Made by a program: the position numbers and the translations under genes | From: Spirochaetia bacterium | GTDB taxonomy: Bacteria; Spirochaetota; Spirochaetia; UBA9216 | Assembly: GCA_963677925.2 (NCBI GenBank) | Contig: CAXXYH010000004.1 | Span: forward strand, 256,001 to 320,000 | Reading direction: 5' to 3' | DNA: 64,000 bases | Part shown: positions 14,712 through 29,892 of the stretch, piece by piece | Layout of the letters: every line of letters begins with the position of its first letter | How positions within the stretch are numbered: the first letter of the stretch is position 1 | Notes under the pieces: generated by a model | What the model saw: only the letters and a program-made list of their open reading frames with translations | Told to the model about the DNA's origin: nothing | Databases searched by the model: none

Positions 14712-14788
14712 AATAACTAAAATGATAAGGTATTTTCATCTCAGATCAAATAGAAACCATAGTTTTTAGTTATTTCGGTAAAATATTA

Positions 14789-14817: not shown

Positions 14818-14824
14818 ACTTAAA

Positions 14825-14850: not shown

Positions 14851-14864
14851 CATTATAATTACTA

Positions 14865-15272
14865 TTGGAGAGCATTTTGATCGACCAGATACTTGAGTTG
14901 AAAAAAAAGTGTAATTTCGACCGCGAAATAGGAGAGGCTTTAAACCTTAAGGATAAGGAAATCTCTGCCATCGCCGCCATTGCTGAATGCAGTGAACTTA
15001 CATCAAAAGAAGTATCAGATCAGATATCACTGTCACCCTCAAGAGGAAGCAGGGTGATAACCGGCCTTATGGAAAAGGGCCTTGTTGAACTAAACCACAA
15101 CAGTGACGACAGAAGGGTTATCAATATCACACTTACCCGGGCCGGAGAAGCATGCTACTTAAATATGGTGGAAGAAATAAAAAAATGCGAACGGCGCCTT
15201 ACAGAGAATCTTACTGAACAGGAAAAACTGATTATTTCAGAAGGCCTGCAGATATTACTTAAAACTATATAG
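14865..15272 (+). CDS. MarR family transcriptional regulator
   Basis: LSPSRGSRVITGLMEKGLV...DDRRVINITLTRAG winged-helix motif; four Cys. The start may be TTG 14877 (GGAG at 14867-14870). Confidence 0.9.
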   Translation: MESILIDQILELKKKCNFDREIGEALNLKDKEISAIAAIAECSELTSKEVSDQISLSPSRGSRVITGLMEKGLVELNHNSDDRRVINITLTRAGEACYLNMVEEIKKCERRLTENLTEQEKLIISEGLQILLKTI

Positions 15273-15280
15273 GAGAGAAG

Positions 15281-15943
15281 ATGGCTGAGACAAAAACTTC
15301 AAACGCAATAAATATAAGGTATTCCGATCTGGCGGAAACAAGCTGCTGCCTTTCATGCGGCGGTGCCGTAAACCACAGCAAGGCTAAAACCGGTGAGGTA
15401 TGTGTAGACCTTGGAAGCGGAAGAGGTACCGACGTCCTCAGGCTTGCGGAAGATGTAGGGGAAACAGGGTTTGTATACGGCATCGATCTTTCAGACGGAA
15501 TGATCCGAAAGGCTGAAAAAACCGCAGAAAGGCTCGGTGTTAAAAACGTAAAATTTGAGCAGGCGGATCTTGAAGCTCTACCGGTTGAAGATTCTACAGT
15601 GAATCTGGTTATCTCAAACTGTGTAATAAATCATGCTGAAAACAAGCAGAATGTATGGAACGAAGTTTACAGAATTCTGAAAAAGGGCGGACGCTTTGTT
15701 GTAAGCGATATCTATTCGAGTGCACCAGTTCCTGAAGAATACAAGAATGATCCTGAAGCAGTTGCTGAGTGCTGGGCGGGTTCTGTAACCCGGGAAGTAT
15801 ACCTGAATCAGCTGGCAGCAGCAGGATTTAAGGATGTAGAGATTCTTGAAGAAAGCAATCCCTACCCCAAGGGCAAAATCGAAGTTAGCAGCTGGACCAT
15901 CCTGGGCAAAAAACCGGGTGGCTGCAGCTGTAACAATATTTAA
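15281..15943 (+). CDS. ArsM-like (arsenite methyltransferase family) SAM-dependent methyltransferase
   Basis: CCLSCG, VDLGSGRG, YGIDLS, LVISNCVIN, RILKKGGRFVVSD, AECWAGS and a C-terminal CSC. The Cys positions match ArsM motifs. AGGAG RBS. Confidence 0.82.
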   Translation: MAETKTSNAINIRYSDLAETSCCLSCGGAVNHSKAKTGEVCVDLGSGRGTDVLRLAEDVGETGFVYGIDLSDGMIRKAEKTAERLGVKNVKFEQADLEALPVEDSTVNLVISNCVINHAENKQNVWNEVYRILKKGGRFVVSDIYSSAPVPEEYKNDPEAVAECWAGSVTREVYLNQLAAAGFKDVEILEESNPYPKGKIEVSSWTILGKKPGGCSCNNI

Positions 15944-15954
15944 AGGAGTGGTAG

Positions 15955-16050
15955 ATGAAATCACTTATCAAGAAGAAACCGGAAGGCAAAAAAGAAGTAG
16001 CTCAGTGCTGCGCTAAGCTTTCCAAAGTTGTGGCCGGCTGCCACGATTAA
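15955..16050 (+). CDS. 31-aa Cys-containing peptide, putative RiPP precursor (MKSLIKKKPEGKKEVAQCCAKLSKVVAGCHD)
   Basis: AGGAG at 15944-15948, ATG at 15955, TAA at 16048-16050. Lys-rich N-half and CC...C C-half. Sits between the methyltransferase and the rSAM/SPASM gene and is followed by a stem-loop. Below the ORF-track length cutoff. Confidence 0.85.
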   Translation: MKSLIKKKPEGKKEVAQCCAKLSKVVAGCHD

Positions 16051-16057
16051 TCCTTTA

Positions 16058-16088
16058 CCGGAACGGAGGGTTTAATCCTCCGTTCCGG
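16058..16088 (+). terminator. Intra-operon stem-loop after the peptide gene (mRNA stabiliser or partial terminator)
   Basis: Perfect 12-bp stem ccggaacggagg / cctccgttccgg with a 7-nt loop. The T-run starts about 14 nt later rather than immediately. Confidence 0.75.
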
Positions 16089-16113
16089 ATCCTAACAGGG
16101 GCTTTTTTAATTT

Positions 16114-17436
16114 ATGGAATATACATTATCTAAACATAATATTATCGGGAAACTTGCGGACTCTGAAAACTGGTACATAGTAAATCCTTTAAGCAGAAAC
16201 GCCGACATAATTACTTCAGAAACTGCGGATACTTTGACCAATGGATCCTACACCAATGCAGATGAACTTCTGGAAAAGGGATATATCGTTGACGCGGCAG
16301 CAGAAGATAAGACATTCAAGGCTGAATACCTGAGTTTTATCGACAACCGTGAAACTGATGAAATTCAGATTTTTTATGTGCCGACCTACGCGTGCAATTT
16401 TGCATGTTCATACTGCTATCAGGAAGGTTATTCCCATGATAAGAATGAAAAGCCGCTGGAAGTAATCGACGCATTTTTCAGCTACATCGATAAGGAATTC
16501 GCCGGACGTAGAAAGTACATAACTGTTTTCGGCGGCGAACCGATGCTGCCGGACCCGCTGACCCGGGAAAAAATCGGTCATATAATCAAGAATGCCAATG
16601 ACAGAAATCTGTCTCTTGCATTTGTAACCAACGGCTATACGCTTGAATCCTACGTTCCAATGCTGCAGATGGCAAGCATACGGGAAGTACAGGTTACCCT
16701 TGACGGACCGGCTGAAGTGCATGATAAGCGCAGAATGCTAAGAGGCGGTAAGGGCACTTTCAGTGAAATTGCCGACGGAATAAATGCAGCGCTTAGAGCA
16801 GACATTCCTATAAACCTGAGGGCGGTAATAGACAGGGATAATCTTCCATCACTGCCGGCACTTGCAGAGTTTGCAGTATCACAGGGCTGGACTAATAACA
16901 AACTTTTTAAAACACAGCTTGGCCGAAATTATGAACTGCACTACTGCCAGGCTGATGAGAACAGGCTTTACGACAGACTGACGATGTATGCAGATCTGTA
17001 TGAGCTTATAAAGAAAAATCCGGTGATAATGCAGTTTCACCGTCCGGCATATTCGATTTCAAGATTTCTGTTTGACAACGGAGAGATGCCTGAACCGCTG
17101 TTTGACTCATGTCCGGGCTGTAAAACCGAGTGGGCCTTTGACTACACCGGTAACATTTATTCCTGCACAGCCACAGTAGGAAAGAGCGGTGAAGAACTTG
17201 GAACTTTTTATCCTTCAGTTACAAGGAAGGAAGAAATAATTGAAGAATGGCAGGAGCGCGATGTTACAGCAATAAGTGAATGCGCCGACTGTTCACTCAA
17301 GCTGGCATGCGGCGGAGGCTGTGCTTCCGTAGCAAAGAACAAATCCGGCAGGATTTGCTCCCCGGACTGCCGACCGGTAGACGGACTTTTATCATACGGA
17401 CTTTCACTTTACTTCGGAGAGGAAGCGGAAGCCTAA
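16114..17436 (+). CDS. Radical SAM / SPASM domain peptide maturase
   Basis: CNFACSYC (CxxxCxxC), FGGEP, TNG, QVTLDG..VHDKRR; SPASM C..GNIYSC and CADCSLKLACGGGC...C; ~80-aa N-terminal extension of RRE-like character. Confidence 0.92.
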   Translation: MEYTLSKHNIIGKLADSENWYIVNPLSRNADIITSETADTLTNGSYTNADELLEKGYIVDAAAEDKTFKAEYLSFIDNRETDEIQIFYVPTYACNFACSYCYQEGYSHDKNEKPLEVIDAFFSYIDKEFAGRRKYITVFGGEPMLPDPLTREKIGHIIKNANDRNLSLAFVTNGYTLESYVPMLQMASIREVQVTLDGPAEVHDKRRMLRGGKGTFSEIADGINAALRADIPINLRAVIDRDNLPSLPALAEFAVSQGWTNNKLFKTQLGRNYELHYCQADENRLYDRLTMYADLYELIKKNPVIMQFHRPAYSISRFLFDNGEMPEPLFDSCPGCKTEWAFDYTGNIYSCTATVGKSGEELGTFYPSVTRKEEIIEEWQERDVTAISECADCSLKLACGGGCASVAKNKSGRICSPDCRPVDGLLSYGLSLYFGEEAEA

Positions 17437-17472
17437 ATTTGAAAATAATTAACCACACTAAAGGAGTTGGAT

Positions 17473-18756
17473 ATGGCAGGAAAAATTAAAGAGATTCAGC
17501 AGGCGGATTTTGAGAATGAAGTACTTAAGGCAGATAAGGTAGTTGTTGATTTCTACTCAACCGAGTGTCCGCCCTGCGAGGCGCTTGCAGCAAAGTATGA
17601 AAGCCTCAGCATGATATACGGGGATGATATAAAATTCATCAAGATATTCCGTCAGGGAAACAGGGAGCTGGCACAGGAACTTGATATCAGCGGTTCACCT
17701 ACAGTTATATTCTATAATAACGGAGAGAGAACCGGAGCAACACTTACTGGCGGGATAAAAAGATCTGAGCTTATGGAAAACCTTGATGCTCTTCTTTCCG
17801 CAGAAAAAGTGGAAGAAATTCATTCAAAGATTACTCCCGTGGTTACCAACGCTGATGTTGTAATCCTCGGCGGCGGTCCTGCAGGTCTTACCGCTGGAGT
17901 ATATCTGGCTCAGGCTCATCTTAAAACGATACTCGTTGATACCGCACTTCCCGGAGGATACGTAGCAACTACACACCAGGTATCCAACTACCCCGGTTTC
18001 ATTGAACCGCAGCAGGGATTCATGCTCAGCCATTATATGAGCGAACAGGCAAAGGCAAACGGTGTTGAGTTCAGAAGTGCTGTTGAAGTAACAAAGGTCG
18101 ATCTTGCAAACAAGAGTATTCTTGTTGACGGATTTGAAACAATAGAAGCCAAAAAAGTTGTAATATCTACAGGCTCAAGACCAAGACCACTGGGAATCCC
18201 GGGCGAGAAGGAATACGCAGGTCAGGGAATCAGCTACTGTGCAACATGTGACGGAAAATACTTCGAAGGCAAAGAGATTGTCGTTATCGGCGGCGGAAAC
18301 TCAGCGATTGAGGAATCGCTCTTCCTCTCAAAATTCGCAAGTAAAATAACCATTGTTCACCAGTTCGATACTCTGCAGGCTAACAAGGAAGCTCAGCAGA
18401 AGATCTTTGATGACCCTAAGGTAAACATCATGTTTGAACATGAGCCGAGAGAGTTCAAGAAATACGGCAACATGGACATGGCTGTAGTAGTTGAGGATCT
18501 TAAAACCGGTGAAAAGAAAGAGGTCAAGACCAACGGTATATTCGTATTCGTAGGTTTTATACCAAATCTTGAAAGCTTCCATGACAAACTTGAGACAGAT
18601 CAGTGGGGATACCTGAAGACCAACGAAAACATGGAAACCAACATTCCCGGCGTTTTTGCAGTAGGCGATGTTAAAACAAAGGCATACCGCCAGATTACAA
18701 CAGCTGTTTCTGACGGAACAATTGCCGCAATTACAATATCAAAAGAACTTTCCTGA
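17473..18756 (+). CDS. Thioredoxin (CPPC) - thioredoxin reductase fusion
   Basis: N-domain VVVDFYSTECPPC...GSPT; C-domain GGGPAGLTAG, NYPG, ISYCATCDG, GGGNSA, PGVFAVGD, RQITTAVSDG. AAGGAG RBS before ATG 17473. Confidence 0.92.
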   Translation: MAGKIKEIQQADFENEVLKADKVVVDFYSTECPPCEALAAKYESLSMIYGDDIKFIKIFRQGNRELAQELDISGSPTVIFYNNGERTGATLTGGIKRSELMENLDALLSAEKVEEIHSKITPVVTNADVVILGGGPAGLTAGVYLAQAHLKTILVDTALPGGYVATTHQVSNYPGFIEPQQGFMLSHYMSEQAKANGVEFRSAVEVTKVDLANKSILVDGFETIEAKKVVISTGSRPRPLGIPGEKEYAGQGISYCATCDGKYFEGKEIVVIGGGNSAIEESLFLSKFASKITIVHQFDTLQANKEAQQKIFDDPKVNIMFEHEPREFKKYGNMDMAVVVEDLKTGEKKEVKTNGIFVFVGFIPNLESFHDKLETDQWGYLKTNENMETNIPGVFAVGDVKTKAYRQITTAVSDGTIAAITISKELS

Positions 18757-18758
18757 TT

Positions 18759-19787
18759 TTAATAGTTTAAATTAGAGAGAAGGTTCCATCCATCATTGAT
18801 AAACTGATCGGTTGTCCGGTTGGCAGAACCAAAGGTGATGAAATCTTCTCTCTTCATTCCATCGGGCTCGTAGGCCTTCCTGAACTCAGATATGGTCATA
18901 AGCCGGTCAATAACAGCCGGGTCCACAGGTTCATCAATCATTTCATTGAAGTCAGAAACTTCAACCAGAAGATCTGCAATTTTCGGAGAGATAGACATTA
19001 TCATCTCGGCCCCTGCAAGATCTATAATTTGATGTGCCCCGCGGCAGCCTGCAGGCATCAGATATGTGTCATAGTCTTTTTCCCTGAAAATTTGATATGC
19101 CCTTTTTATACAGGCTGTTCCCGCTTTTATAATATCTGATTCAGAAACAGAAGCTTTTCGATCCTGGGCTACATCACGCAGATAATCGTCCAGTCGTCCT
19201 ACCATCATTACAGCGATAGCCAAACCGGGTTTAATTCCGGCAGCCTCTGCTCTTTTTTTTCCTCTGACCCGGGCCTCTGCCACAGCAAGAACCTGAGGTA
19301 CAGTAAAACTTACAGTCGCAGCTACATTCAGACCGGCTGCAGCACACTCCTCATAAGCCTCTATTCCTGCATTGGTAGCAGGCAGTTTAATAACAATATT
19401 TTCCGCCAGCATTGAAAATCTTTTTGCCTGGTCAGTCATATAGAAGGCATCACCGGTTTTCAGCGGATTGGTTTGAATACACACATAACCTTTTCCCGGA
19501 ATCCCCTGCTTATATACAGGCATAACTTCCGCTGCGTAGAAGCCTGCAACCATACGGCAAAGAGCCTCTACTTTTTCATCACCCTTTAATCCTTTGGGCA
19601 GACCAGCCAGTTTATCCTCCCAGAAATCCCGATTATTGCAGAGTGTAGCACCAATCAGAAACGGGTTGGTTGTCATTCCGCAGGCACCGTTGATGAAGGC
19701 GGACTCCTGCTCGAATTTTACAGCGGAATCATGCCAGTAGATTGATGCGGTTGAACTGCTGAGCCATGAAAGGTATTTATTATGCAT
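18759..19787 (-). CDS. Transaldolase family protein (divergent)
   Basis: WHDS, TTNP, IKLPAT.AG (Schiff-base Lys), ATVSF, MVGRLDD. Confidence 0.85.
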   Translation of the reverse strand: MHNKYLSWLSSSTASIYWHDSAVKFEQESAFINGACGMTTNPFLIGATLCNNRDFWEDKLAGLPKGLKGDEKVEALCRMVAGFYAAEVMPVYKQGIPGKGYVCIQTNPLKTGDAFYMTDQAKRFSMLAENIVIKLPATNAGIEAYEECAAAGLNVAATVSFTVPQVLAVAEARVRGKKRAEAAGIKPGLAIAVMMVGRLDDYLRDVAQDRKASVSESDIIKAGTACIKRAYQIFREKDYDTYLMPAGCRGAHQIIDLAGAEMIMSISPKIADLLVEVSDFNEMIDEPVDPAVIDRLMTISEFRKAYEPDGMKREDFITFGSANRTTDQFINDGWNLLSNLNY

Positions 19788-19844
19788 TTTGAGTGTCTCC
19801 TATTAATAATTATCATCACTTGAAAAGGTCGATCACCGAATCAG

Positions 19845-20612
19845 TTACAAACTCGCCTGCCAGCCACCATCAATATAAATGGATTGCCCTGAGAGATAGT
19901 TTGATGCTTCGGAAGCAAGAAATACTGCACAGCCTATCAGATCTTCTGTTCGCCCCCATCGCTGAAGAGGAACCTCACTTTTAACCCAGGAATCAAATTC
20001 AGGGTCTTCGGATAATGCGGATGTCATTTCTGTAAGGATATAGCCCGGTCCTATGGCATTGACGTTGATGTTGTATTTTCCCCATTCTGAGGCCATTGAT
20101 TTAGTCAGCATCTTAAGACCGCCCTTCGCGGTGCAGTATGCGCCAATGTCAGGCCGGGCCATTTCTGCGTTAATTGATGAAATATTGATAATTTTACCGT
20201 ATTTACGTGACTTCATACTTTTAACTACAGCTTTCCCCATTATAAAGGCACTAGTCAGGTTAATATCCAGAACCTTCTTCCAGTCCTCTGTTGAAAGCTC
20301 TTCAAGTGCGGTCCGCTTCTGAATGCCCGCATTATTCAATAGAATATCCACGGGTCCTGCATCTTCTTCTATCTGTGAAATATTAGCTATAACCTGCTTT
20401 TCATCGGAAATATCAAAACAGTATCCGCAGGCATCGTAACCTTCTGCTTTTAACCGATTAACAGATTCTGAAAGAAGTTCTTCCCTGATATCATTAAGAA
20501 CAACTTTTGCACCCTGTTTCAAAAATCCTTCTGCAAAACTGTTGCCTATTCCCCGCGCCGCGCCTGTTATTAAAACTACTTTCCCTTTTATATCGAATAA
20601 ATTATTTTCCAT
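19845..20612 (-). CDS. idnO: Gluconate 5-dehydrogenase-type SDR
   Basis: LFDIKGKVVLITGAARGIG, NNAGIQKR, ARPDIGAYCTAKGGLKMLTKSMASEW, NAIGPGY, P..RWG. Alternative start at 20630. Confidence 0.8.
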   Translation of the reverse strand: MENNLFDIKGKVVLITGAARGIGNSFAEGFLKQGAKVVLNDIREELLSESVNRLKAEGYDACGYCFDISDEKQVIANISQIEEDAGPVDILLNNAGIQKRTALEELSTEDWKKVLDINLTSAFIMGKAVVKSMKSRKYGKIINISSINAEMARPDIGAYCTAKGGLKMLTKSMASEWGKYNINVNAIGPGYILTEMTSALSEDPEFDSWVKSEVPLQRWGRTEDLIGCAVFLASEASNYLSGQSIYIDGGWQASL

Positions 20613-20641
20613 TATTCTACCGATCGACATGTATTATGTAT

Positions 20642-20654
20642 CTTGTATTACAAG
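20642..20654. promoter_or_regulatory. FadR/GntR-type operator
   Basis: Palindrome CTTGTA-T-TACAAG upstream of idnO; a near-identical 19-mer lies upstream of the gntR gene. Confidence 0.65.
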
Positions 20655-20734
20655 TATTATAATTACGATGTTATATAATCCCTCTTTTGTCAAGGCGGCT
20701 GATATATTCTTCCGTGAAAAATTAACAGTGATGT

Positions 20735-21445
20735 TTAGTTCTGATTTCCTGAATTATAGAATTCACGCATTCTTTCTATGGTTCTTTCAACGTGCTCATG
20801 CATAAGATCTTTAGCCCGGACTGCATTACGTTCCTTGATAGCATTTATAATATCTTTATGATATTTAATACCGTCTTTACTACCAAGAATCTTAGTAAGC
20901 TCGAACCAGGTTGTATGAAATATTTCAAACAGCATTTTATACATATTACAGATGATATTATTAGAGAGTATCTCTATCATATGCAGATGAAACTTTTCAT
21001 CAATGCTGGAAAAAATCCGGATATCATTAGTATGCTCAATCATGTCATTATAGAGTTCTTCAAGTTTTTTTATATCATCTTCTTTAGCTTTTTCGACTAC
21101 CAAAGGCATTATATTGGGTTCGATTATCAGTCTGTATTCAAGAACATCCATTACATCACAATTATCCAGAACAACAAAAGGCATAAGCAGATTAAGCTGT
21201 GCTGATAAGTCATAACTTTTTACAAAACTTCCTTCACCCCGTTTGATTTCAATAAACCCCTGGGCGGCCAGAGACTGGAGTGCGGCTCGAACAGAGACCC
21301 TGCTCACCCCCATCTGTTCACACAATTGAGATTCTGACGGCAATCTATCACCGGGAGCCCATTTTCCGAGTATTATCATGCTTCGGCATTGTTCATAAAC
21401 TTGATTTTTTATCTGCGAAGTCTCAATTTTTCCTAAACCTGTCAT
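20735..21445 (-). CDS. GntR family (FadR subfamily) regulator
   Basis: PGDRLPSE.QL...GVSRVSVRAAL..L...G..EIKRGEGSFV; FCD domain (DEKFH, H..I..AI). Confidence 0.93.
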   Translation of the reverse strand: MTGLGKIETSQIKNQVYEQCRSMIILGKWAPGDRLPSESQLCEQMGVSRVSVRAALQSLAAQGFIEIKRGEGSFVKSYDLSAQLNLLMPFVVLDNCDVMDVLEYRLIIEPNIMPLVVEKAKEDDIKKLEELYNDMIEHTNDIRIFSSIDEKFHLHMIEILSNNIICNMYKMLFEIFHTTWFELTKILGSKDGIKYHKDIINAIKERNAVRAKDLMHEHVERTIERMREFYNSGNQN

Positions 21446-21451
21446 ATGTAT

Positions 21452-21483
21452 CTTATATTATAAGGACACATAACAGCTGTCAA
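21452..21483 (-). promoter_or_regulatory. gntR promoter with overlapping operator
   Basis: TTGACA (21483-21478), 17 nt spacer, TAATAT, overlapped by the palindrome CTTATA-T-TATAAG (21452-21464). Confidence 0.6.
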
Positions 21484-21540
21484 TTATTCAGATGTTATAG
21501 AACCATAGGTGCAGTATCTTATTCTAAAACATCGCTTGAA

Positions 21541-22719
21541 TCAAAAAACTTTTTTCTTCCGGGAACTGATTATATAGGCAATAAATATTAAAAAGGCAAT
21601 CAGGCCGGAGCCTTTGAAAATGTTTTCAAGACCCAGAACATCCCCGATAACACCCCAGGACAGGGCCCCTATTCCTATACCGGCATCCATTGCCAGATAA
21701 TATGTCGCATTTGCACCGGCTCTTTCCTCTTTGGTAGTGTGGACTACCGCACTCACATTTAGAAGAAGATGACTAAGGCCGAAACCGGCTCCGAATATGA
21801 AAGCAAGAGGAATGAGGGCATAGATATCTCTAATAAAATTTATTGCTGTAACACAGAGGAAAACTACAAATAATCCAACACCTAATAATTTATACTTTGA
21901 AACCTTTTCTGAAATCTTTCCCGCAAACAATCTGGAAAATGCTACACCTAAGGCCCTTGAAGTGTAATAAAAACCAATGCCGGTGATTCCCACAAATCTT
22001 GCGTAGGGAATCAGAAAAGTTGAGATTGAGGAGCTGACGAAAGAAAGAACCCCGACAAACAGCGAAGCATAAGCAGCCTTCTTTTCTATAAGACGACCGG
22101 GAAGGTCTTTAATCTCTTCAGGAGGGGCTCCATGAATCATGTTCTTTTCATATCTGATAAAAAAAGCAGCGATGACTGAAATAAATGCAACAATACCGGT
22201 TATTAAAAAACCGATGGAGAATCCTAAATTATCAGAAATAAAAAGTGCTGTTGCCGGGCCCAGAGCCTGTGCAAGCGTTGCTGTCAGACCGAAATACCCC
22301 AGGCCTTCAAGAAGACGGTTCTGAGGAACAATATCCGTAACCATAGTGGTGTTTGCTACTGACTGAAACGAAAAACCGAAACCGCAGAGTATCTGAAAGC
22401 AATAGAGAAGCGGAAGATTATGTACAAATCCGAATGGAACCGTTGTGACTGCAAAAAGAATAGTCCCCGCTGAAAAAACTGTTTTCCTACCATATTTATC
22501 GATTATCTTTCCGGAGAAGGGTCTCAGCACAAGAGCCGAAACTGTAAAAACAGTCATTGCCGAGCCGGCTATTGTTTTTGATGAATACAGATCAAGCAGA
22601 TACAGGGGCTGAAGGGTTGTCTTTATAAACATTGAGAACCTGAAAAGAAGCCCGACGATTGAAACAAGGATAAAATCCGGACTGAATAATTTTTCCTTTA
22701 CAGGCTCAGAGTTCAGCAT
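21541..22719 (-). CDS. MFS transporter
   Basis: About 12 hydrophobic segments; GKIIDKYGRK motif A. Confidence 0.9.
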   Translation of the reverse strand: MLNSEPVKEKLFSPDFILVSIVGLLFRFSMFIKTTLQPLYLLDLYSSKTIAGSAMTVFTVSALVLRPFSGKIIDKYGRKTVFSAGTILFAVTTVPFGFVHNLPLLYCFQILCGFGFSFQSVANTTMVTDIVPQNRLLEGLGYFGLTATLAQALGPATALFISDNLGFSIGFLITGIVAFISVIAAFFIRYEKNMIHGAPPEEIKDLPGRLIEKKAAYASLFVGVLSFVSSSISTFLIPYARFVGITGIGFYYTSRALGVAFSRLFAGKISEKVSKYKLLGVGLFVVFLCVTAINFIRDIYALIPLAFIFGAGFGLSHLLLNVSAVVHTTKEERAGANATYYLAMDAGIGIGALSWGVIGDVLGLENIFKGSGLIAFLIFIAYIISSRKKKVF

Positions 22720-22736
22720 TGTATTTCAGTTGTCAA

Positions 22737-23621
22737 TTATCGTGTTACTTCAATATTTGCAATCTTCTCATAGAACTTAACTATACTTGCATGGTCCTGA
22801 ACTCCGCAGCCGTCCTGCTTGATTGCCTGCATTATTTCCATAGCCTGAGCAGCAAGAGGAAGAGGAACACCTACAGCTCTTGATGTTTCAAGTGCGTTTG
22901 CCATATCCTTGATGTGAAGATCAATTCTGAAACCGGGATCGAACTTTCTGTCCATCATCATCGGAGCCTTTGCATCCATTACAGTGCTGCCTGCAAGACC
23001 GCCGCGAATAGCCTGATAAACAAGATCGGGACTTACACCGGCCTTTTTGGCAAGGACCATTGCTTCTGATACTGCAGCGATGTTGAGAGCGACAACAACC
23101 TGGTTGCAAAGCTTTGTTGTATTTCCGGCACCGAGGTCTCCGACATATACAACAGAACTTCCCATTACAGCCATTATTTCCTGATACTTGTCGAAGATAA
23201 CCTTCTTTCCGCCTACCATAATGGCAATTGTTCCGTCAATAGCCTTGGGTTCACCTCCGCTTACAGGAGCATCTAGCATATCCATTCCTTTTTCAGCAAG
23301 TGCTGCGCCAATCTCCTGGCTTGCTCCCGGTGCTATGGAACTCATATCTATAAGAACCTTTCCAGGTGCTGCAGCTTCAATAAGTCCGCCGGCATCAAGA
23401 GCAACGGCCTTTACATGCGGTGAATTGGGAAGCATTGTAATTACAAGATCGGTTTTTGAAAGTACTTCGGCAGGTGTAGAGCAGGCTTCCGCACCCATTG
23501 AAACAAGTTCAGCTACTGCGGCTTCATTGATATCTCTAACAAGCAGTTTATGCCCTGCGTTAACAAGGTTTTTTGCCATTGGCTTTCCCATAATCCCAAG
23601 CCCTACAAATCCAATAGTCAT
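22737..23621 (-). CDS. garR: 2-hydroxy-3-oxopropionate (tartronate semialdehyde) reductase
   Basis: GFVGLGIMGKPMAKNL, MLPNSPHV, DAPVSGGEPKAIDG, IRGGLAGSTV, PGFRIDLHIKD. Confidence 0.92.
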   Translation of the reverse strand: MTIGFVGLGIMGKPMAKNLVNAGHKLLVRDINEAAVAELVSMGAEACSTPAEVLSKTDLVITMLPNSPHVKAVALDAGGLIEAAAPGKVLIDMSSIAPGASQEIGAALAEKGMDMLDAPVSGGEPKAIDGTIAIMVGGKKVIFDKYQEIMAVMGSSVVYVGDLGAGNTTKLCNQVVVALNIAAVSEAMVLAKKAGVSPDLVYQAIRGGLAGSTVMDAKAPMMMDRKFDPGFRIDLHIKDMANALETSRAVGVPLPLAAQAMEIMQAIKQDGCGVQDHASIVKFYEKIANIEVTR

Positions 23622-23644
23622 ATTAAACTCCTTAAAAAGATTTC

Positions 23645-23773
23645 TTATTTAAAACAGACTGACTTTTTAAGTCCCTGCTTAGCCTTTTCTTTTATTTAAT
23701 CTGAAACATCCATGACAGGATGAATAGGCTCTCCGGCATCGATACCCATAAGGTCCAGGCGGACCTTCATCAT
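23645..23773 (-). pseudogene. Remnant resembling the C-terminus of a DHDPS/NAL-family aldolase
   Basis: Hand translation MMKVRLDLMGIDAGEPIHPVMDVSD*IKEKAKQGLKKSVCFK* resembles the K..L.L.G...G.P..P tail of DHDPS-family enzymes; in-frame TAA at 23698-23696. Confidence 0.5.
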
Positions 23774-23901
23774 TTCTCAGAGATTTTATAAGTTCCAAAT
23801 TTATCATAATCAGACTAACACCTGATCGGGATACAGGATATGTTTCGGTATTACAAATATTAAATAAATTTCTGTACTGAAGATACAGCGAAGTCAGCGG
23901 C

Positions 23902-25044
23902 TCAGCATTTCTCCAGAAAAAAGCCAAGTTCGGTGAGAAATTCCCGATCGGCACTGTTTGTAATGGGATCAATCTGAAGAAGGTCTTTCAGTTTGTTCAG
24001 CCTGAAAACAATCGTATTGCGGTGAACGCAGAGGTCCTGGCTGGTCTTCACAATATTATAGTTATTCTCACTCAGGGTTTTTATAGTTTCAACCATAATT
24101 TTACGTTCCTGAGTAAAAAAAAGATTCTGATAAATAGAAAAAGCTTCAAAATAGAGACGTGTAGTTACAGAGTTACGGATGTAATCCTGAATATGATCAT
24201 AAAAATAATTCAGCTGCTGTTTTTTCTTCACAAGCATGCTGTTCTTTAATGCGTGCTTGTAGGAGTCACGATAGTTGTCAATTTTTTCCTGAAGACTTCC
24301 AATAAAAAATACAAGCTCGTCTTCCTCAAAATCAGGCTGTGCAGAACTTATTACTGAATCAAGATATTCCTGTACGAGGGTTTTAAAATTCCGGAGAAGG
24401 TATTCTGTATTGCCGGATCTAAAAAGTTTGAGGATGATAATATCATCATTCCGGCCTACTACAGCAATCCGGTCATTATGAATTTCAGCGCCTCTTGTAA
24501 GGATAGGAAGAATCTTTGAATTGGGAATTTTAAATGACTTTCGCAGAAGAATTATAACTGCCGGAGTTTTTTCATCCAGGCTGAATTCCTTTGCAAGTCT
24601 GACGGCCTCATCAGAATTGTAGTCATCATCAAAAAGAAGATAATATAAAAACCGTTCAGTTTTTCCCCGGGACCTTAGATCCTGTGCGGCCTGTACTTCG
24701 TAGTCGAGCATTGTTTCAATTGATGTTTTCACGAAGCCGGCAAAACTCTGGACGTTTTCCGGATCACCGGTTACACAGATTACTCCGACCTTCTCACCCT
24801 TATGCTCTATGAACATATTAATTCCGGGCTTAGTGCCGATGTACTTATCCTTCCTGGTAACAACTCCGGTATCGATTGTCCCGTTGAGCATCTTACTGGC
24901 AACCTCATGAAAATCACCGATGCGGCTGGCATCCTTGCTTGCAATAATAATGCCGGCCTGGTCCATGATGTTGACATTGTAGGGAAGGTTTTTAACCGTA
25001 CGCTGAATAAATTTCTGTGCAAACTCCGGATTCAATGCAAACAA
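23902..25044 (-). CDS. CdaR/SdaR-like sugar diacid regulator
   Basis: NVNIMD..G.IIAS.D..RIGDFHE, KPGIN, GVICVTGDP diacid-recognition domain; C-terminal VHRNTIVFRL PucR-type HTH. Confidence 0.9.
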   Translation of the reverse strand: MFALNPEFAQKFIQRTVKNLPYNVNIMDQAGIIIASKDASRIGDFHEVASKMLNGTIDTGVVTRKDKYIGTKPGINMFIEHKGEKVGVICVTGDPENVQSFAGFVKTSIETMLDYEVQAAQDLRSRGKTERFLYYLLFDDDYNSDEAVRLAKEFSLDEKTPAVIILLRKSFKIPNSKILPILTRGAEIHNDRIAVVGRNDDIIILKLFRSGNTEYLLRNFKTLVQEYLDSVISSAQPDFEEDELVFFIGSLQEKIDNYRDSYKHALKNSMLVKKKQQLNYFYDHIQDYIRNSVTTRLYFEAFSIYQNLFFTQERKIMVETIKTLSENNYNIVKTSQDLCVHRNTIVFRLNKLKDLLQIDPITNSADREFLTELGFFLEKC

Positions 25045-25251
25045 GACTCTTTCCCTTTTCTCGACAATATGATCTCAGACTATCATTGCTGTAGCATAGG
25101 GTCAATAAATTCAAACTTAAGATACTTTATCAGGAATTCTTACAACCGCCGAAGTTCTGGGTATCGATAGAAGAGCTTTGTGGAGAAAAAATCCGGAATC
25201 ATCAGATTGATTGCAGGTTACTTATAAATTAGAATAACTGCGGAGATACAT

Positions 25252-26208
25252 ATGAAAAGACCAAAGGTCCTTGTTGGATTAAACGTTCCTGATTCTGTTA
25301 AACAGTACCTCGATACTTTCTGTGATTGTGAATACTTCACCCTGCGCGGTGTTCCGCGGCCTGAAATACTGTCCCGGATAAAAGACAAAGAGGGGCTTCT
25401 GATTGGCGGAACTAAAATTGACAAACAGCTTCTGGATGCGGCGCCGGAACTGAAGGCTGTATGCTGCGCATCTGTCGGATACAATAATGTTGATATCGAA
25501 GAAACACGCAGGCGCAGAATTATCGTAACAAACACTCCCGGTGTTCTCAATGAAACAGTAGCCGATCTTATTCTTGCCCTCATGCTCTCTGTCTCACGCA
25601 GGATAGTTGAGCTTGACGGATACCTTAGAGAGGGCTTATGGAAACCGTCCGACAATGAAAATCTATTCGGTCTGGATGTACATCATAAAACGCTTGGAAT
25701 AATCGGTATGGGACGGATCGGTGAAGCCGTCGCCGAACGGGCTGTAGGCGGTTTTTCGATGAAGGTTCTCTATAACAACAGAAACAGAAAACCCGAAACA
25801 GAGCAGAGGCTTGGTGTAACATACAGCGGGTTCGATCAGCTGCTTGAAGAATCCGATTTTGTGCTTGTTATGACTCCGCTCACTGAACAGACCAGCAGGA
25901 TGTTCGGCAGCAGGGAGTTTTCTCTGATGAAAAATACTGCCTATTTTATCAATGCATCACGGGGTCAGACAGTTGATGAAACAGCTCTGGTGAAGGCCCT
26001 GCAGAACGGCAGTATTGCAGGTGCAGGACTTGATGTTTTTGACCGGGAACCTGTAGCTCCGGACAATCCGCTTTTAGAATTAAAGAATACTGTTTTAGTT
26101 CCCCATATCGGCTCAGCCTCGTATCAGACCAGAGGCGACATGGCCATGCTGGCGGCAGAAAATCTGAATGCAATTTTTAAAACAGGAAAGGGAATAACCG
26201 CAGTTTAA
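25252..26208 (+). CDS. ghrB: D-2-hydroxyacid dehydrogenase, GhrB / 2-ketogluconate reductase type
   Basis: SVGYNN, TNTPGVLNETVAD, DVHHKTLGIIGMGRIG, INASRG, GLDVF..EP, PHIGSA. Confidence 0.8.
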   Translation: MKRPKVLVGLNVPDSVKQYLDTFCDCEYFTLRGVPRPEILSRIKDKEGLLIGGTKIDKQLLDAAPELKAVCCASVGYNNVDIEETRRRRIIVTNTPGVLNETVADLILALMLSVSRRIVELDGYLREGLWKPSDNENLFGLDVHHKTLGIIGMGRIGEAVAERAVGGFSMKVLYNNRNRKPETEQRLGVTYSGFDQLLEESDFVLVMTPLTEQTSRMFGSREFSLMKNTAYFINASRGQTVDETALVKALQNGSIAGAGLDVFDREPVAPDNPLLELKNTVLVPHIGSASYQTRGDMAMLAAENLNAIFKTGKGITAV

Positions 26209-26251
26209 ATTAGATCTAAATATCTATTAATTGTTCCAGGACAGACTCAGA

Positions 26252-27373
26252 TTAGAGAGACTGCACAGGCTCAGGCTTTCCGGTAGCTGCACTTCGGTAA
26301 GCAGCATCCAGAATCAACTGTGCTTTAACACCCTCCTCCACACCCGGTTTGAAAGTTGAACATTCAGCAACTGATTTCAGAAATCGGTACTGATTTTCAC
26401 AGTGAAAGCGCTGCCATCCGATGACAGAACGGGGGGTCGGTATAACGGCACCCTGATAATGCTGGGCTGTTTCAAGCCGTTTCCATCCGTCTTCTTTCTG
26501 TGCCTCATCAAACCAGTAAAGATACCCCGGGTCCATAAGGTTGAACCTGAAAGATCCCCTGCTGCCGAAAACCGTGATATTCAGCTCATCAAGGGTCCCG
26601 GTAGCGAAACGTGAAACCTCAATCGTACCTGTACCGCCTGATACAAGTTCACAATGCATCCAGGCTGCATCATCAACAGTGACCGGCATTTTATTAGAAG
26701 CTCCTGCATATTCAGGCCTTTCATTTATATAAGTTTTAACATCAGCCCTGACAGTTTTAAAATCGCCAAGCAGATAACTCAGCAGATCAATCACATGTAC
26801 TCCAAGGTCCGCCATTGCACCTCCGCCTGAACGGCTGAAATCCATCCGCCATGACCAGGGCTTTTCGGCATTCTGATACCCGGTGTGGAAATATTCACCC
26901 CTGAAAGAGTAAACCTCACCCAGTCGTCCCTGCTCTATGAGCTCTCTGGCTTTAAGAATTGCAGGCACAAAACGGTAATTGAAGATCATTCCAAGTGTTT
27001 TATCGGAGCGCCGGGAGGCTTCAAGCACTTCGGAAGCCTCGGCGGCATTTAATGCCAGGGGCTTTTCACACAGAACATGCTTTCCGGCTTCCAGTGATTT
27101 GAGAATCTGCTCTTTATGCAGATAATTCGGAGAAACAATATCTACAACATCCACCTCCGGATCTGTAAGAACCTCATCGAGGCTGCCGTAACCTATCTCC
27201 ATACCGGCGGCCTCTGCAGTTACTGCAGCCCTCTGCGGAGTTGAAGCGAGCAGCCCCTTAATCCTCACCGGAGGAATACTCCCCGGATAATATTCCCTGA
27301 TATCACGGTATCCAAGAAGATGGATCCGCCCAATCGAACCAAAACCTAAAAAAGCAATATTGATTGTTTTCAT
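26252..27373 (-). CDS. Gfo/Idh/MocA family oxidoreductase
   Basis: GFGSIG, AGKHVLCEKPLA, FNYRF.PA, GGGAMADLGVH. Start placed at ATG 27373. Confidence 0.9.
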   Translation of the reverse strand: MKTINIAFLGFGSIGRIHLLGYRDIREYYPGSIPPVRIKGLLASTPQRAAVTAEAAGMEIGYGSLDEVLTDPEVDVVDIVSPNYLHKEQILKSLEAGKHVLCEKPLALNAAEASEVLEASRRSDKTLGMIFNYRFVPAILKARELIEQGRLGEVYSFRGEYFHTGYQNAEKPWSWRMDFSRSGGGAMADLGVHVIDLLSYLLGDFKTVRADVKTYINERPEYAGASNKMPVTVDDAAWMHCELVSGGTGTIEVSRFATGTLDELNITVFGSRGSFRFNLMDPGYLYWFDEAQKEDGWKRLETAQHYQGAVIPTPRSVIGWQRFHCENQYRFLKSVAECSTFKPGVEEGVKAQLILDAAYRSAATGKPEPVQSL

Positions 27374-27489
27374 CCCATTTATCGTAACCATATAAGCCCG
27401 TTTTCTCAAGATTTAAATGAGGATATTTCAAAGATCCGTTTTAATTACCTATCCTTGACTTTCCGCCAGATTATGCCACAATTAAGTTC

Positions 27490-28311
27490 ATGTATGATCT
27501 AAGTGGAAAAACAGCTGTTGTAACCGGAGGGGCCGGGGGTATAGGCTTTGACACAGTAGTCCGGCTTCTAAAAGAAGAATGCCGGGTTGCAGTCTGGGAC
27601 GCGTCAGAAGCAGGAATGAAGGAGGCATCAGTTAAACTGATCGACTATTCAGACAAGCTGCAGTGGAGAAAGGTCGATATTGCCGATCCGGAAGAGACCA
27701 ATGAAGCCGCGGAAGAACTGAAAGCCTCATGGGGCTCACCGGATATCCTGATAAACAACGCAGGAGTAATGCGCAGGGGAACATTTCTGGAAGGAAAAGA
27801 TGCAGACTGGCCTCTGACTATTGATGTAAACCTTAACGGCGTCATGAATACAATAAAGGAATTTCTGCCTGATATGTATCAAAAAAATTCCGGACACATT
27901 GTAAACATTTCCTCCGCTGCTGGAATGCTCGGAGTGTCCGGTCTGGCAGTATATTCAGCCAGCAAATGGGCCGTACACGGACTCACCGACTCGCTGCGTG
28001 AAGAAGCCTACACAGCCGGTAAGAACGTCAGATTCAGTTCAGTACATCCGTTCTACATTGCCACCGGCCTGTTCGAAGGAGCGCAGATTAAGGGCCTGGG
28101 GAACATTCTTGTCCCCAGAGTTAAAAACCATGATGTAATTGCAAAGGCTATAGTTGATGATGCGCTTCGGCGAGGAAGAATGAAAATTTACAGACCGCGA
28201 TCACTTTTTCTGATAGACCTGCTTAAAGGAATTCTGCCCTATCCAGCCTTCGCACAATTCATACGCCTTTTAAAGGTCCAGGACAGCATGATTTATCATA
28301 AGGGGAAATAA
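27490..28311 (+). CDS. SDR family oxidoreductase
   Basis: TGGAGGIG, NNAG, YSASK. Confidence 0.92.
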   Translation: MYDLSGKTAVVTGGAGGIGFDTVVRLLKEECRVAVWDASEAGMKEASVKLIDYSDKLQWRKVDIADPEETNEAAEELKASWGSPDILINNAGVMRRGTFLEGKDADWPLTIDVNLNGVMNTIKEFLPDMYQKNSGHIVNISSAAGMLGVSGLAVYSASKWAVHGLTDSLREEAYTAGKNVRFSSVHPFYIATGLFEGAQIKGLGNILVPRVKNHDVIAKAIVDDALRRGRMKIYRPRSLFLIDLLKGILPYPAFAQFIRLLKVQDSMIYHKGK

Positions 28312-28315
28312 TTTT

Positions 28316-28340
28316 TCAACCTTTTCAAACTTCAAACGTA
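28316..28340 (+). promoter_or_regulatory. ECF-type promoter (AAC-N16-CGTA) in front of the ECF sigma gene
   Basis: aac at 28318-28320, cgta at 28337-28340, ATG 9 nt later with no SD. Confidence 0.55.
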
Positions 28341-28349
28341 TATAAAAGT

Positions 28350-28919
28350 ATGAATGGTTTAAAAGAGCAGCTGAAAATATTCAGCTGTTCATTCAGCGAA
28401 AGAAAACTCAGAGAAATATTCGAGAAAATATGGTTCGAATACTACCCTAAGCTCACTGTATACATTCAGATCACCTTCAATATCAGCGACTATGAAGACC
28501 TTGTTCAGGAAATAATGCTGAAAGTCTTTAAAAACCTTTCGGGTTATAATCCGGTTTTTTCATTCAACACCTGGATTTTTTCCATTGCGCGGAATCATGT
28601 TATTGACAATTTAAAAAAAGCAGCAACTGCAGAAAAAACAGTCAGCAGGCTCAAATCAGACTACAACAGTATAGAGTTCACCAAATACGGTTCGCCTGAA
28701 AGCCTGCAGCTTCGGGAAGTTTTAAAAAAAGATATACAGCTTTTTATAGAAAGACTGCCTGCTCCGGAAAGGCAGATTTCATATCTTAGATTTTACGAGG
28801 AACTTAAGTACTCAGAAATTTCAAAAATAACAGAAATACCTGAAGGCTCGGTTAAAAGCCATGTGCACAATATCAGGAAGAAACTCAAACAATACTACGG
28901 GGATGAATATGAAGACTGA
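28350..28919 (+). CDS. ECF RNA polymerase sigma factor
   Basis: EDLVQEI, FNTWIFSIARN, LKYSEIS..T.IPEGSVKS. Confidence 0.93.
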   Translation: MNGLKEQLKIFSCSFSERKLREIFEKIWFEYYPKLTVYIQITFNISDYEDLVQEIMLKVFKNLSGYNPVFSFNTWIFSIARNHVIDNLKKAATAEKTVSRLKSDYNSIEFTKYGSPESLQLREVLKKDIQLFIERLPAPERQISYLRFYEELKYSEISKITEIPEGSVKSHVHNIRKKLKQYYGDEYED

Positions 28920-29220
28920 AAAGTTAATACATGATGAATTCAGACGGATGATCGAGGAAGTACACGTCCCTGATTTACCGAAAGAAATTGAGGGAAGACT
29001 CTCGGGGAGAAAAAATCGAAGTCTTCCGTCACTGCTTGCAGCAGCCCTTATTGCCTTAAGTTTCATACCCTTCATAAGCAGTGCGGACAGGCCTTCCGCT
29101 CTCGCCATAAAAACAGCCGGCTTCAGCCGGAACACTGAATTTGGAAAAACACTTACCAGACAGCTTATCAGTCTGCAGAACATTGCAGAAAACTCATTTA
29201 ACACAGGAGAAAAAAAATGA
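28909..29220 (+). CDS. Probable single-TM anti-sigma factor
   Basis: Overlaps the sigma stop; short cytoplasmic N-terminus, basic patch, one TM (LPSLLAAALIALSFIPFI). Confidence 0.6.
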   Translation: MKTEKLIHDEFRRMIEEVHVPDLPKEIEGRLSGRKNRSLPSLLAAALIALSFIPFISSADRPSALAIKTAGFSRNTEFGKTLTRQLISLQNIAENSFNTGEKK

Positions 29221-29663
29221 GGAAAACATATTTTATAAGTTTAATTCTTTATACAGCCATTCTCATTCTTGCTATGTTTATAGTCGGATGTATAGCCTGC
29301 TTCTTTGACATTCCAAGCCTTTTAATGGTTCTGCTGCCTACACTGTTGATGCTTTTAACCTGTTACAGGCTTTCAGAGATGGGACAGTATTTTTCTATCG
29401 CATTTTCTGATAAGAAAGCAGACCCTGTAGAACTTGAAAAAGGCATAGGTTTCTTTAAGGCAATGCAGAAATATCTTTTCATCGCCAGCGGTGTTGGGGT
29501 AATGATGGGACTAATCGCTATGCTTGCAACGCTTGATGATCCGGAGTATATAGGCAAAGGCCTTGCGCTTGCCTTACTAACAATGCTTTACAGCCTGTAT
29601 TTCACAATAATAATTGCAGTCCCACTCCGAAGCGCCCTCGAGAAAAAACGGACAGACAATTAG
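29217..29663 (+). CDS. Membrane protein with MotA/ExbB-like TM motifs
   Basis: FFDIPSLLMV and G...GLIAMLATLDDP..IGKGLALALLTMLY resemble MotA TM segments without the cytoplasmic loop. Confidence 0.7.
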   Translation: MRKTYFISLILYTAILILAMFIVGCIACFFDIPSLLMVLLPTLLMLLTCYRLSEMGQYFSIAFSDKKADPVELEKGIGFFKAMQKYLFIASGVGVMMGLIAMLATLDDPEYIGKGLALALLTMLYSLYFTIIIAVPLRSALEKKRTDN

Positions 29664-29701
29664 CAGGATTAATTATAAATCCTGTTATTTTTCACTTTTG
29701 T

Positions 29702-29738
29702 TTATATCCGTCTGCAGTTTCACAGCAGGCGGATATAA
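29702..29738. terminator. Stem-loop between convergent genes
   Basis: ttatatccgtctgc / gcaggcggatataa, 14-bp stem with one G-U pair, AT-rich flanks. Confidence 0.65.
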
Positions 29739-29892
29739 TAATTTAAATAATTTTTTTGATATCTTTCCCGGCTGGTCCATAAAAACTGATATTCAGTGAA
29801 AGCATGTGAACAGAAAGTTTTATTATCTGCGGAACACTCGAAAGCAGCCGGTTCAATAGGTCTTTATGCTGTTAAGCGTTGTCTGAATAGTA

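Follow-up and report, generated by a model that had tools for sequence, protein, structure and literature searches.

We analysed a stretch of 64,000 nucleotides from the genome of a Spirochaetia bacterium (assembly GCA_963677925.2, contig CAXXYH010000004.1, positions 256,001 to 320,000), here called the window, and focused on an island of six genes that combines a divergent transaldolase-family gene with a gene for the tartronate semialdehyde reductase GarR and that may encode a short, kinase-free route for C6 sugar acids. An open reading frame (ORF) listing and family scans recovered all seven genes of an initial annotation of this DNA at the coordinates given there (Table 1), and the family scans agreed with it in placing the transaldolase beside a gluconate 5-dehydrogenase-type short-chain dehydrogenase/reductase (SDR), a FadR-type regulator, a major facilitator superfamily (MFS) transporter, garR and a CdaR-like regulator. 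The island genes are transcribed from the minus strand in the order CdaR-like, GarR, MFS, GntR/FCD, SDR and transaldolase, with intergenic gaps of 280, 17, 95, 104 and 57 bp, and the GhrB-like gene is transcribed divergently from them. Family scans of positions 16114-28919 of the window detected no kinase or dehydratase, as the initial annotation had stated for sugar-acid kinases and dehydratases. A promoter and terminator scan placed a sigma-70-like site at 21483-21455, ahead of gntR; site counts were no higher than in shuffled sequences, and the scan is uninformative on operon structure.

Table 1. Features of the island and its flanks, with positions in the window
Feature	Position	Strand	Basis and proposed role
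Divergent transaldolase-family protein, 342 aa	18759..19787	-	PF00923 114.4 bits vs gathering threshold 27; proposed keto-sugar-acid transaldolase
SDR, gluconate-5-dehydrogenase-like	19845..20630	-	NF005488 308.6 bits vs cut-off 369; proposed aldonate 5-dehydrogenase making the keto acid
GntR/FCD transcriptional regulator, FadR subfamily	20735..21445	-	PF00392 + PF07729
MFS transporter (MFS_1)	21541..22719	-	PF07690 153.8 bits
GarR, tartronate semialdehyde (2-hydroxy-3-oxopropionate) reductase	22737..23621	-	NF008592 474.2 bits vs cut-off 397
CdaR-like sugar-diacid regulator, Diacid_rec + HTH_30	23902..25044	-	PF05651 + PF13556
Insertion/deletion unit, 6431 bp, six genes (transaldolase to CdaR-like)	18758..25188	.	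Synteny with a genome of the same genus
GhrB/glyoxylate-reductase-like 2-hydroxyacid dehydrogenase, flank	25252..26208	+	NF011938 327.9 bits vs cut-off 492
GFO/IDH/MocA oxidoreductase, flank, after the GhrB-like gene	26252..27409		Family scan
Small ORFs near the radical SAM/SPASM maturase	14865-15943
Radical SAM/SPASM peptide maturase	16114-17436
Thioredoxin-thioredoxin-reductase fusion	17467-18756

The borders of the island were defined by aligning window DNA from 12000 to 31900 to a genome of the same genus (G001). The two sequences are collinear, at 84-94% identity, up to position 18757 and again from 25189; in between, a segment of 6431 bp in the window, which begins at the transaldolase stop codon and ends upstream of the CdaR-like gene, is matched by just 79 bp in G001. 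The GC content of the island is 41.3% versus 44.0% in the remainder of the window. With the island proteins as queries, no orthologue of the transaldolase and none of GarR was detected in G001 and nine genomes of the same family, which gave only a transaldolase paralogue of 37-40% identity and GarR paralogues of at most 33% identity. Because the six genes correspond to a single insertion or deletion between genomes of one genus, we conclude that they were gained or lost together, an independent line of evidence that the genes make up a single module. The initial annotation had also counted the GhrB-type reductase in the cluster; by contrast, this gene is kept beside the empty site in G001 at 84% DNA identity, and GhrB-like genes lie near the transaldolase in just 4 of the 80 related loci described below. 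Thus, the GhrB-like and GFO/IDH/MocA genes are conserved flank outside the island, and the GhrB-like gene probably lies outside the module. A radical SAM/SPASM peptide maturase gene is followed by a thioredoxin-thioredoxin-reductase fusion, which directly abuts the island, and small ORFs are present near the maturase gene.

GarR is the only island protein that scores above an equivalog cut-off. Beyond the model in Table 1, it reaches 404 bits on TIGR01505 (cut-off 340.75) and 418.7 bits against PDB entry 1VPD, the solved tartronate semialdehyde reductase of Salmonella; against the model for sulfolactaldehyde reductase it reaches 208 bits. The gene is single-copy in the host genome. Among class-level relatives the closest GarR (82% identity) is encoded in genome G018, in an operon of the order CdaR-like (51% identity to the window protein), DapA/KdgD-family, GarR, glucarate dehydratase (798 bits vs cut-off 828.7) and galactarate dehydratase (750 vs 731). 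By score and kinship, the window reductase is predicted to be a bona fide GarR; moreover, because its nearest relative sits in a GudD/GarD operon, window GarR and the CdaR-like regulator appear to be anchored in sugar-diacid metabolism.

The same operon could be read differently, namely that the island is a mosaic without joint function, in which a decayed CdaR-GarR glucarate module lies beside an unrelated GntR-SDR-transaldolase module. The close kinship of the GarR/CdaR pair to a canonical GudD/GarD operon would suit this explanation, as would the promoter-like site ahead of gntR and the fact that the exact layout recurs in no other locus. However, the six genes came or went as one block, the pairing of transaldolase and GarR recurs independently elsewhere, and no other use for GarR was found in the host genome. 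We consider a mosaic very improbable.

The remaining partners are less sharply defined. The SDR stays under the cut-offs of both gluconate 5-dehydrogenase models (NF005983, 275.8 vs 408 bits, in addition to the model in Table 1), and its top PDB match is 4G81, a "putative hexonate dehydrogenase" (311.8 bits), followed by several gluconate 5-dehydrogenases; it is related to these enzymes, below equivalog level, and is a putative aldonate 5-dehydrogenase. The CdaR-like protein has the Diacid_rec plus PucR-type helix-turn-helix architecture and scores 101.6 bits on NF008550 (cut-off 612). The best matches of the MFS protein are drug/H+ antiporter-like models, all far below their cut-offs.

That the window protein belongs to the transaldolase superfamily (PF00923) follows from its Pfam score, its TIM-barrel fold and its Schiff-base lysine. 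Its divergence, asserted by the initial annotation, was borne out: the best NCBIfam transaldolase model gives 76.8 bits against a cut-off of 367, and all nine models, including the equivalog models TIGR00874, TIGR00876 and NF002881, remain far below their cut-offs. The protein belongs to a large clade: of 6372 candidates in a database search, 2460 proteins reached E <= 0.001. The 120 best of them are 64-75% identical and none is named beyond "transaldolase", and in the ESM Atlas only unnamed "putative transaldolase" clusters were matched. A maximum-likelihood tree placed the window protein inside this clade, beside sequences from Oscillospiraceae and other Bacillota. A confident structure predicted with AlphaFold2 from 21 sequences of the clade (pLDDT 92.5) matched the transaldolases of Neisseria gonorrhoeae and Corynebacterium glutamicum in Foldseek with TM scores of 0.78-0.82 at 18-20% sequence identity.

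The active site was mapped by aligning the clade profile with Escherichia coli TalB. The Schiff-base lysine (TalB Lys132, window Lys134) is retained, as are Asn35 (window Asn41), Thr156 (Thr158) and the two phosphate-binding arginines, Arg181 (Arg198) and Arg228 (Arg249). Five positions are changed: Glu96 to Gln105, Asn154 to Ala156, Ser176 to Val193, Phe178 to Met195 and Ser226 to Gly247. Across 106 sequences, which comprise the clade, a tandem paralogue and the second copy of the host genome, Gln105, Lys134, Arg198 and Arg249 are each present in 106/106 and Asp20 in 105/106, and His19 directly precedes Asp20 in 99/106. Position 195 is Met in 80, Gln in 23 and Val in 3, with Gln in the second paralogue and Tyr in none. 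Gln105 and Met195, together with the scores below cut-off, argue against a classical TalB-type transaldolase. Sulfofructose transaldolases (SftT/BmSF-TAL) were also rejected, being of the short TalC type; entry 8bc3 matches the window protein with 26.9 bits over 72 residues (103-174).

The glutamine raises the alternative that the protein is an aldolase like fructose-6-phosphate aldolase (FSA) rather than a transferase, and cleaves a keto sugar acid so that dihydroxyacetone is set free along with tartronate semialdehyde. In TalB, Glu96 acts as acid-base with the catalytic water; E. coli FSA has Gln at this position, and its Tyr131, at the position of TalB residue 178, makes such a barrel an aldolase. 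Consistent with the Gln of FSA, E96Q/F178Y variants of TalB are among the structural matches. Such an aldolase would share with the window protein the glutamine found in all 106 sequences, and the linkage to GarR described below would fit it equally well. However, the acid-base tyrosine never occurs at position 195, the FSA model TIGR00875 gives 39.6 bits against a cut-off of 245.95, and a dihydroxyacetone kinase homologue was seen in just one of 80 related loci. On these grounds FSA itself was rejected, and an FSA-like activity is decidedly unlikely.

A second transaldolase gene often accompanies the first: two or more are present in 27 of 80 loci, mostly in tandem, with the paralogue (TAL2; about 43% identity) immediately behind the first gene (L002, L005, L012, L013, L015, L019, L026, L029, L030, L036-L038, L060, L064 and L065 among others). 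Its pocket carries the changes C103L, N154P, S160N, M194Q/M195Q and C248L. The pair may represent two substrate specificities or a hetero-oligomer.

The host genome, which is 99.6% complete, was searched for sources of tartronate semialdehyde. No GarL and no GudD were found in it; the GarD family is represented only by a 31%-identical gene, and no glyoxylate carboligase (Gcl) scores above its cut-off (best 355 bits vs 711). Because GarL, Gcl and GudD were not found, the SDR/transaldolase pair of the island is left as the sole candidate seen in this genome for supplying GarR with its substrate. The genome also has no gluconokinase of the SKI type (TIGR01313), with many candidates of the FGGY type, and another part of the window's contig encodes a homologue of glycerate 2-kinase that is 43% identical to the operon type.

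No classical transaldolase was detected in the host genome, which has just the window gene and one paralogue of 37.5% identity. This second transaldolase-family gene (C4:1618748-1619743; L083:9701-10777, minus strand) has Gln at the Glu96 position and is transcribed divergently from an inositol operon that comprises an ABC transporter, iolG, LacI, iolE, iolG and iolB; its orthologues in several relatives adjoin iol genes (L110, L112, L114, L117) or an aldehyde dehydrogenase gene (L116, L119, L121). No IolC and no malonate-semialdehyde dehydrogenase above cut-off were found in the genome, and no class-II aldolase near the operon. It is possible that the second transaldolase bypasses IolC/IolJ and acts on 2-deoxy-5-keto-D-gluconate, itself a 5-keto sugar acid. 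For Dysosmobacter, a 2026 study reports canonical IolJ and malonate-semialdehyde dehydrogenase as missing and proposes other enzymes, including an oxoacid dehydrogenase complex; the accessible portion of that source does not mention a transaldolase for this inositol route (PMC13311982).

To examine the genomic company of the clade, a pattern scan with one genome per species gave 156 candidates. Confirmation succeeded for 143 of these, and 80 loci with flanks of up to 10 kb were used (at least 5 kb on both sides in 36/80). Neighbouring ORFs were picked by conservation-weighted choice and clustered, and cluster representatives were annotated. The loci come from Oscillospiraceae, Lachnospiraceae, Christensenellaceae, Clostridiaceae, Spirochaetales/Sphaerochaeta/Treponema, Actinomyces/Schaalia (Actinomycetaceae), Limnocylindria (Chloroflexota), Acidobacteriota and others. 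A GarR orthologue, 49-63% identical to that of the window, lies within 10 kb in 43/80 loci and is the immediate neighbour of a transaldolase gene in 22/80. Among metagenome loci whose transaldolase shares at least 55% identity with that of the window, GarR was present in 25/39, and in 17/23 of those of at least 8 kb, with the caveat that many of these loci are near-identical to one another and to metagenome-assembled genomes (MAGs) of the first set and are not independent. By contrast, GarR was present in 0/12 loci around the 37-40%-identical paralogue in relatives and in 0/31 metagenome loci (L177-L207) with 35-39% identity. Because GarR is absent from the paralogue loci, we conclude that the link to GarR is specific to the transaldolase clade of the window. 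The initial annotation had proposed linkage of the clade to idnO and garR as a check: the garR part holds strongly, whereas the idnO part is weaker, with any SDR within 10 kb in 49/80 loci and an orthologue of the window SDR (56-60% identity) in 6/80.

Further neighbours recur within 10 kb of the transaldolase. A TIM-barrel gene resembling the 5-keto-L-gluconate epimerase IolO (NF041099, 217.7 bits vs 300) was found in 29/80 loci, a zinc-dependent dehydrogenase resembling IdnD/IolM/Tdh in 23/80, both halves of a split transketolase in 14/80, and a carboxylate transporter of the tripartite ATP-independent periplasmic (TRAP) or tripartite tricarboxylate transporter (TTT) type in 17/80; in three loci from Actinomycetaceae (L049, L052 and L061), GntP-family permeases adjoin the transaldolase. 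Glycerate kinases of either type (PF02595 or DUF4147+MOFRL) are present in 14/80, and their occurrence with carboxylate transporters in the same operons fits a conversion of tartronate semialdehyde to glycerate. The binding proteins of the TRAP systems in related loci matched sialic-acid and assorted DctP proteins in the PDB with at best 141-171 bits, too remote to indicate a ligand. In a phmmer census of the 80 loci with single-sequence kinase seeds, by which remote kinases could be missed, FGGY kinases were found in 1, dihydroxyacetone kinase in 1, DUF1537 in 0, PfkB-type kinases in 7 and glycerate kinase in 14 loci.

The genes are arranged in at least five operon layouts (TAL, transaldolase; TKn and TKc, split transketolase; ZnADH, zinc-dependent dehydrogenase): SDR - epimerase-like - TAL - TAL2 - GarR; GarR - ZnADH - ABC transporter - epimerase-like - TAL - SDR (- GhrB-like - glycerate kinase); TAL - TctCBA - SDR - TKn - TKc - GarR - SDR - glycerate kinase; SDR - TKn - TKc - GarR - metallo-beta-lactamase-fold gene - TAL; and plain TAL - GarR. 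The metallo-beta-lactamase-fold genes lie between GarR and transaldolase in the spirochaete loci L032, L033 and L034, and also in L031 and L040; they may encode lactonases for sugar-acid lactones.

Other combinations occur at the edge of the clade. Distant members (L063, L076, L078, L080, L025) adjoin genes for a fused E1, E2 and E3 of a complex like the 2-oxoacid dehydrogenases. GarR orthologues are found with E1/E2 in L106 (genome G024), and with a split transketolase and a TRAP transporter in L107 (G033), where no transaldolase lies within 12 kb. Several different C-C-cleaving enzymes thus seem to be paired with GarR. In L104 (G021:C29), a 49%-identical transaldolase gene (9741-10766) is followed by an acylating aldehyde dehydrogenase gene (SauS-like, 527.5 bits vs 600) and then by a carboxyltransferase gene resembling methylmalonyl-CoA decarboxylase alpha; this set would fit oxidation of an aldehyde-acid product to (hydroxy)malonyl-CoA and its decarboxylation.

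These data bear on the simplest alternative, that the protein is an ordinary pentose-phosphate transaldolase, acting on fructose 6-phosphate (F6P) and sedoheptulose 7-phosphate, which occurs in sugar-acid operons as their products enter the pentose-phosphate pathway and to which GarR is unrelated. The fold, the Schiff-base lysine and both phosphate-binding arginines are kept, the host genome has no classical transaldolase, and split transketolase (14/80) and 6-phosphogluconate dehydrogenase (4/80) occur in related loci. However, housekeeping would fall to the paralogue, which is present in 7/10 genomes of the same family, where the window type is missing. Moreover, a pentose-phosphate role leaves unexplained why GarR adjoins the transaldolase and is absent from the paralogue loci; sugar kinases that would supply a phosphorylated product are rare; and the protein scores far below every transaldolase equivalog cut-off and has Gln in place of the catalytic Glu. 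In total, these observations make a pentose-phosphate role unlikely.

Alternatively, the dehydrogenases and the product of the epimerase-like gene could convert a polyol to a neutral ketose that serves as the donor, in which case glyceraldehyde rather than tartronate semialdehyde would be released. The epimerase-like neighbour does also match D-psicose 3-epimerase (96 bits), the zinc-dependent dehydrogenases resemble polyol dehydrogenases, and some of the 80 loci encode sugar-type ABC systems. However, the window reductase is above the GarR equivalog cut-off and has its closest relative in a glucarate operon, and the TRAP, TTT and GntP transporters point to carboxylates. A glycerate kinase beside GarR would require an extra oxidation, and an aldehyde dehydrogenase adjoins the transaldolase in just 2 loci. 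A neutral donor is highly improbable.

Altogether, these observations suggest that the island encodes a short route for C6 sugar acids without a sugar kinase, in which a 5-keto-aldonate and glyceraldehyde 3-phosphate (GAP) would give F6P and tartronate semialdehyde, the latter being reduced to glycerate; we give this reading a probability of about 0.5. The gene identities, the island borders, the linkage of the clade to GarR and glycerate kinase, the retained Schiff-base lysine and arginines and the lack of other known tartronate semialdehyde sources in this genome are observed, whereas what the enzyme acts on, the transfer itself and the direction in which flux runs are inferred. An aldonate would be taken up, perhaps by the MFS protein, an assignment that is uncertain, and oxidised at C5 by the IdnO-like SDR, in the simplest case from D-gluconate to 5-keto-D-gluconate; in other loci the zinc-dependent dehydrogenase and the epimerase would adjust the configuration. 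The donor of a transaldolase must be a 2-ketose whose configuration at C3-C4 is D-threo (fructose-type), and 5-keto-D-gluconate, which numbered from its keto end is L-sorburonate, has this configuration, as does D-fructuronate. Lys134 would form a Schiff base with the keto group, the C3-C4 bond would be cut and the dihydroxyacetone unit transferred to GAP, with the donor carboxylate and the acceptor phosphate sharing the anion pocket of Arg198 and Arg249. C1-C3 of the acid would be freed as tartronate semialdehyde, which GarR would reduce to D-glycerate, and the glycerate kinase encoded elsewhere in the genome would phosphorylate this to phosphoglycerate for glycolysis. The CdaR-like and GntR regulators would control expression. 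Such a route would be redox-neutral and cost one ATP.

That the substrate in this organism is gluconate, by way of 5-ketogluconate, is doubtful. Because many related operons add a gene resembling 5-keto-L-gluconate epimerase and a zinc-dependent dehydrogenase, the enzymes may in reality act on other aldonates or on keto-uronates.

Several observations weigh against the proposed route. GarR was not found within 10 kb in 37/80 loci, though just 36/80 have at least 5 kb on both sides, and many loci come from related MAGs, so that the counts overstate independence. The layout of the window is unique among 160 related loci, where just the TAL-GarR(-SDR) core recurs: no homologue of the window CdaR-like or MFS protein lies beside the transaldolase in any of them, and metagenome contigs contained no closer relative (>72% identity) with the same six-gene layout. 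The scarcity of orthologues of the window SDR makes the idnO-type link weak, and the MFS protein, which falls outside the anion:cation symporter type that usually carries sugar acids, is unlike known sugar-acid importers. Because the nearest GarR belongs to an ordinary glucarate/galactarate operon, the CdaR-GarR half could be an operon remnant, and the split transketolases also suit a pentose-phosphate role. With Gln in place of the catalytic Glu96 in all sequences and Met or Gln in place of Phe178, the chemistry may differ from classical transfer; moreover, Arg198 and Arg249 suit phosphate as well as carboxylate, so that a phosphorylated donor is possible.

The island might also belong to a wider, so far unrecognised class of kinase-free pathways, which could be called carboxy-TAL/TK. 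In this class, Gln-type transaldolases, and in sister operons split transketolases or E1/E2, would cleave non-phosphorylated omega-1-keto aldonic acids and transfer the ketol to GAP, giving F6P or xylulose 5-phosphate and tartronate semialdehyde; a sister clade would convert 2-deoxy-5-keto-D-gluconate to malonate semialdehyde and replace IolC/IolJ, and the island would be a minimal, horizontally acquired version acting on gluconate or a related hexonate. This is a possibility that we put forward tentatively. A mutant transketolase can make tartaric semialdehyde, as far as the accessible text of the source goes, which bears on the transketolase genes in the sister loci (PMC12016104).

If the proposed route is correct, it would be a third entry of sugar acids into glycolysis, beside the known routes that depend on a kinase or on a dehydratase together with an aldolase. 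The acids concerned (gluconate, idonate, gulonate and keto acids derived from uronates) are common in gut, plant and fermentation habitats. It would also give a function to a large unnamed transaldolase clade that is frequent in genomes of Oscillospiraceae, Lachnospiraceae and spirochaetes from guts and digesters, and it would explain orphan garR genes in genomes with neither a glucarate nor a glyoxylate-carboligase pathway. For biocatalysis, an enzyme converting 5-ketogluconate to F6P and tartronate semialdehyde would be of interest. The initial annotation regarded the route as not known to be described; in agreement with this, searches of open-access papers and bioRxiv found neither a member of this family, whether transaldolase or aldolase, with a keto sugar acid as its substrate nor a pathway joining a transaldolase to GarR.

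Compared with known systems, the island shares with the glucarate/galactarate pathway (GudD/GarD, GarL, GarR, GarK, CdaR) its lower part, in which GarR, controlled by a CdaR-type regulator, reduces tartronate semialdehyde to D-glycerate; however, the dehydratases and aldolase of that pathway are absent from the island and were not found in the genome, and the island has an SDR and a transaldolase-like enzyme instead. From the L-idonate/5-ketogluconate pathway (IdnD, IdnO, IdnK) it has the IdnO-like SDR, and related loci have the IdnD-like zinc-dependent dehydrogenases and GntP-family permeases; by contrast, the island has no gluconokinase and the genome none of the SKI type, and the classical route reduces 5-ketogluconate to gluconate whereas the proposed route would cleave it. 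With classical transaldolases (TalB and the enzymes of N. gonorrhoeae and C. glutamicum), the window protein shares the TIM barrel (TM about 0.8), the Schiff-base lysine and the equivalents of Asn35, Thr156, Arg181 and Arg228, and it differs from them in its low identity and in the five substitutions described above.

The closest parallel is found in sulfosugar metabolism. In the sulfo-TAL and the combined sulfo-TK/TAL pathways, according to the accessible portion of the source, a transaldolase cleaves a non-phosphorylated anionic ketose; in sulfo-TAL, sulfofructose and GAP give F6P and sulfolactaldehyde, which is reduced by a GarR-family reductase, and the combined transketolase/transaldolase route is documented in Lachnospiraceae, in Faecalicatena (PMC11659671). 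As far as that account goes, sulfo-TAL (sulfofructose transaldolase plus sulfolactaldehyde reductase or dehydrogenase) resembles the proposed route in that a ketohexose with an anionic C6 is cut without phosphorylation, the dihydroxyacetone unit passes to GAP to give F6P, the C3 aldehyde is reduced by an enzyme of the GarR/YihU family and no sugar kinase is needed; moreover, transketolase genes can share the cluster in sulfo-TK/TAL, as they do in the sister loci here. By contrast, sulfofructose transaldolases are short, decameric enzymes of the TalC/FSA type, a family other than that of the 342-residue window protein, and the window reductase scores as GarR (474 bits) and not as sulfolactaldehyde reductase (208 bits). 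A GH31 sulfoquinovosidase was not among the annotated neighbour families; models for sulfoquinovose isomerase and the sulfonate exporter were not searched for. Transaldolase-dependent, kinase-free cleavage is thus already known in itself; what would be new is the substrate class and the enzyme clade, by which the sulfofructose-transaldolase principle would be extended from sulfonates to carboxylates.

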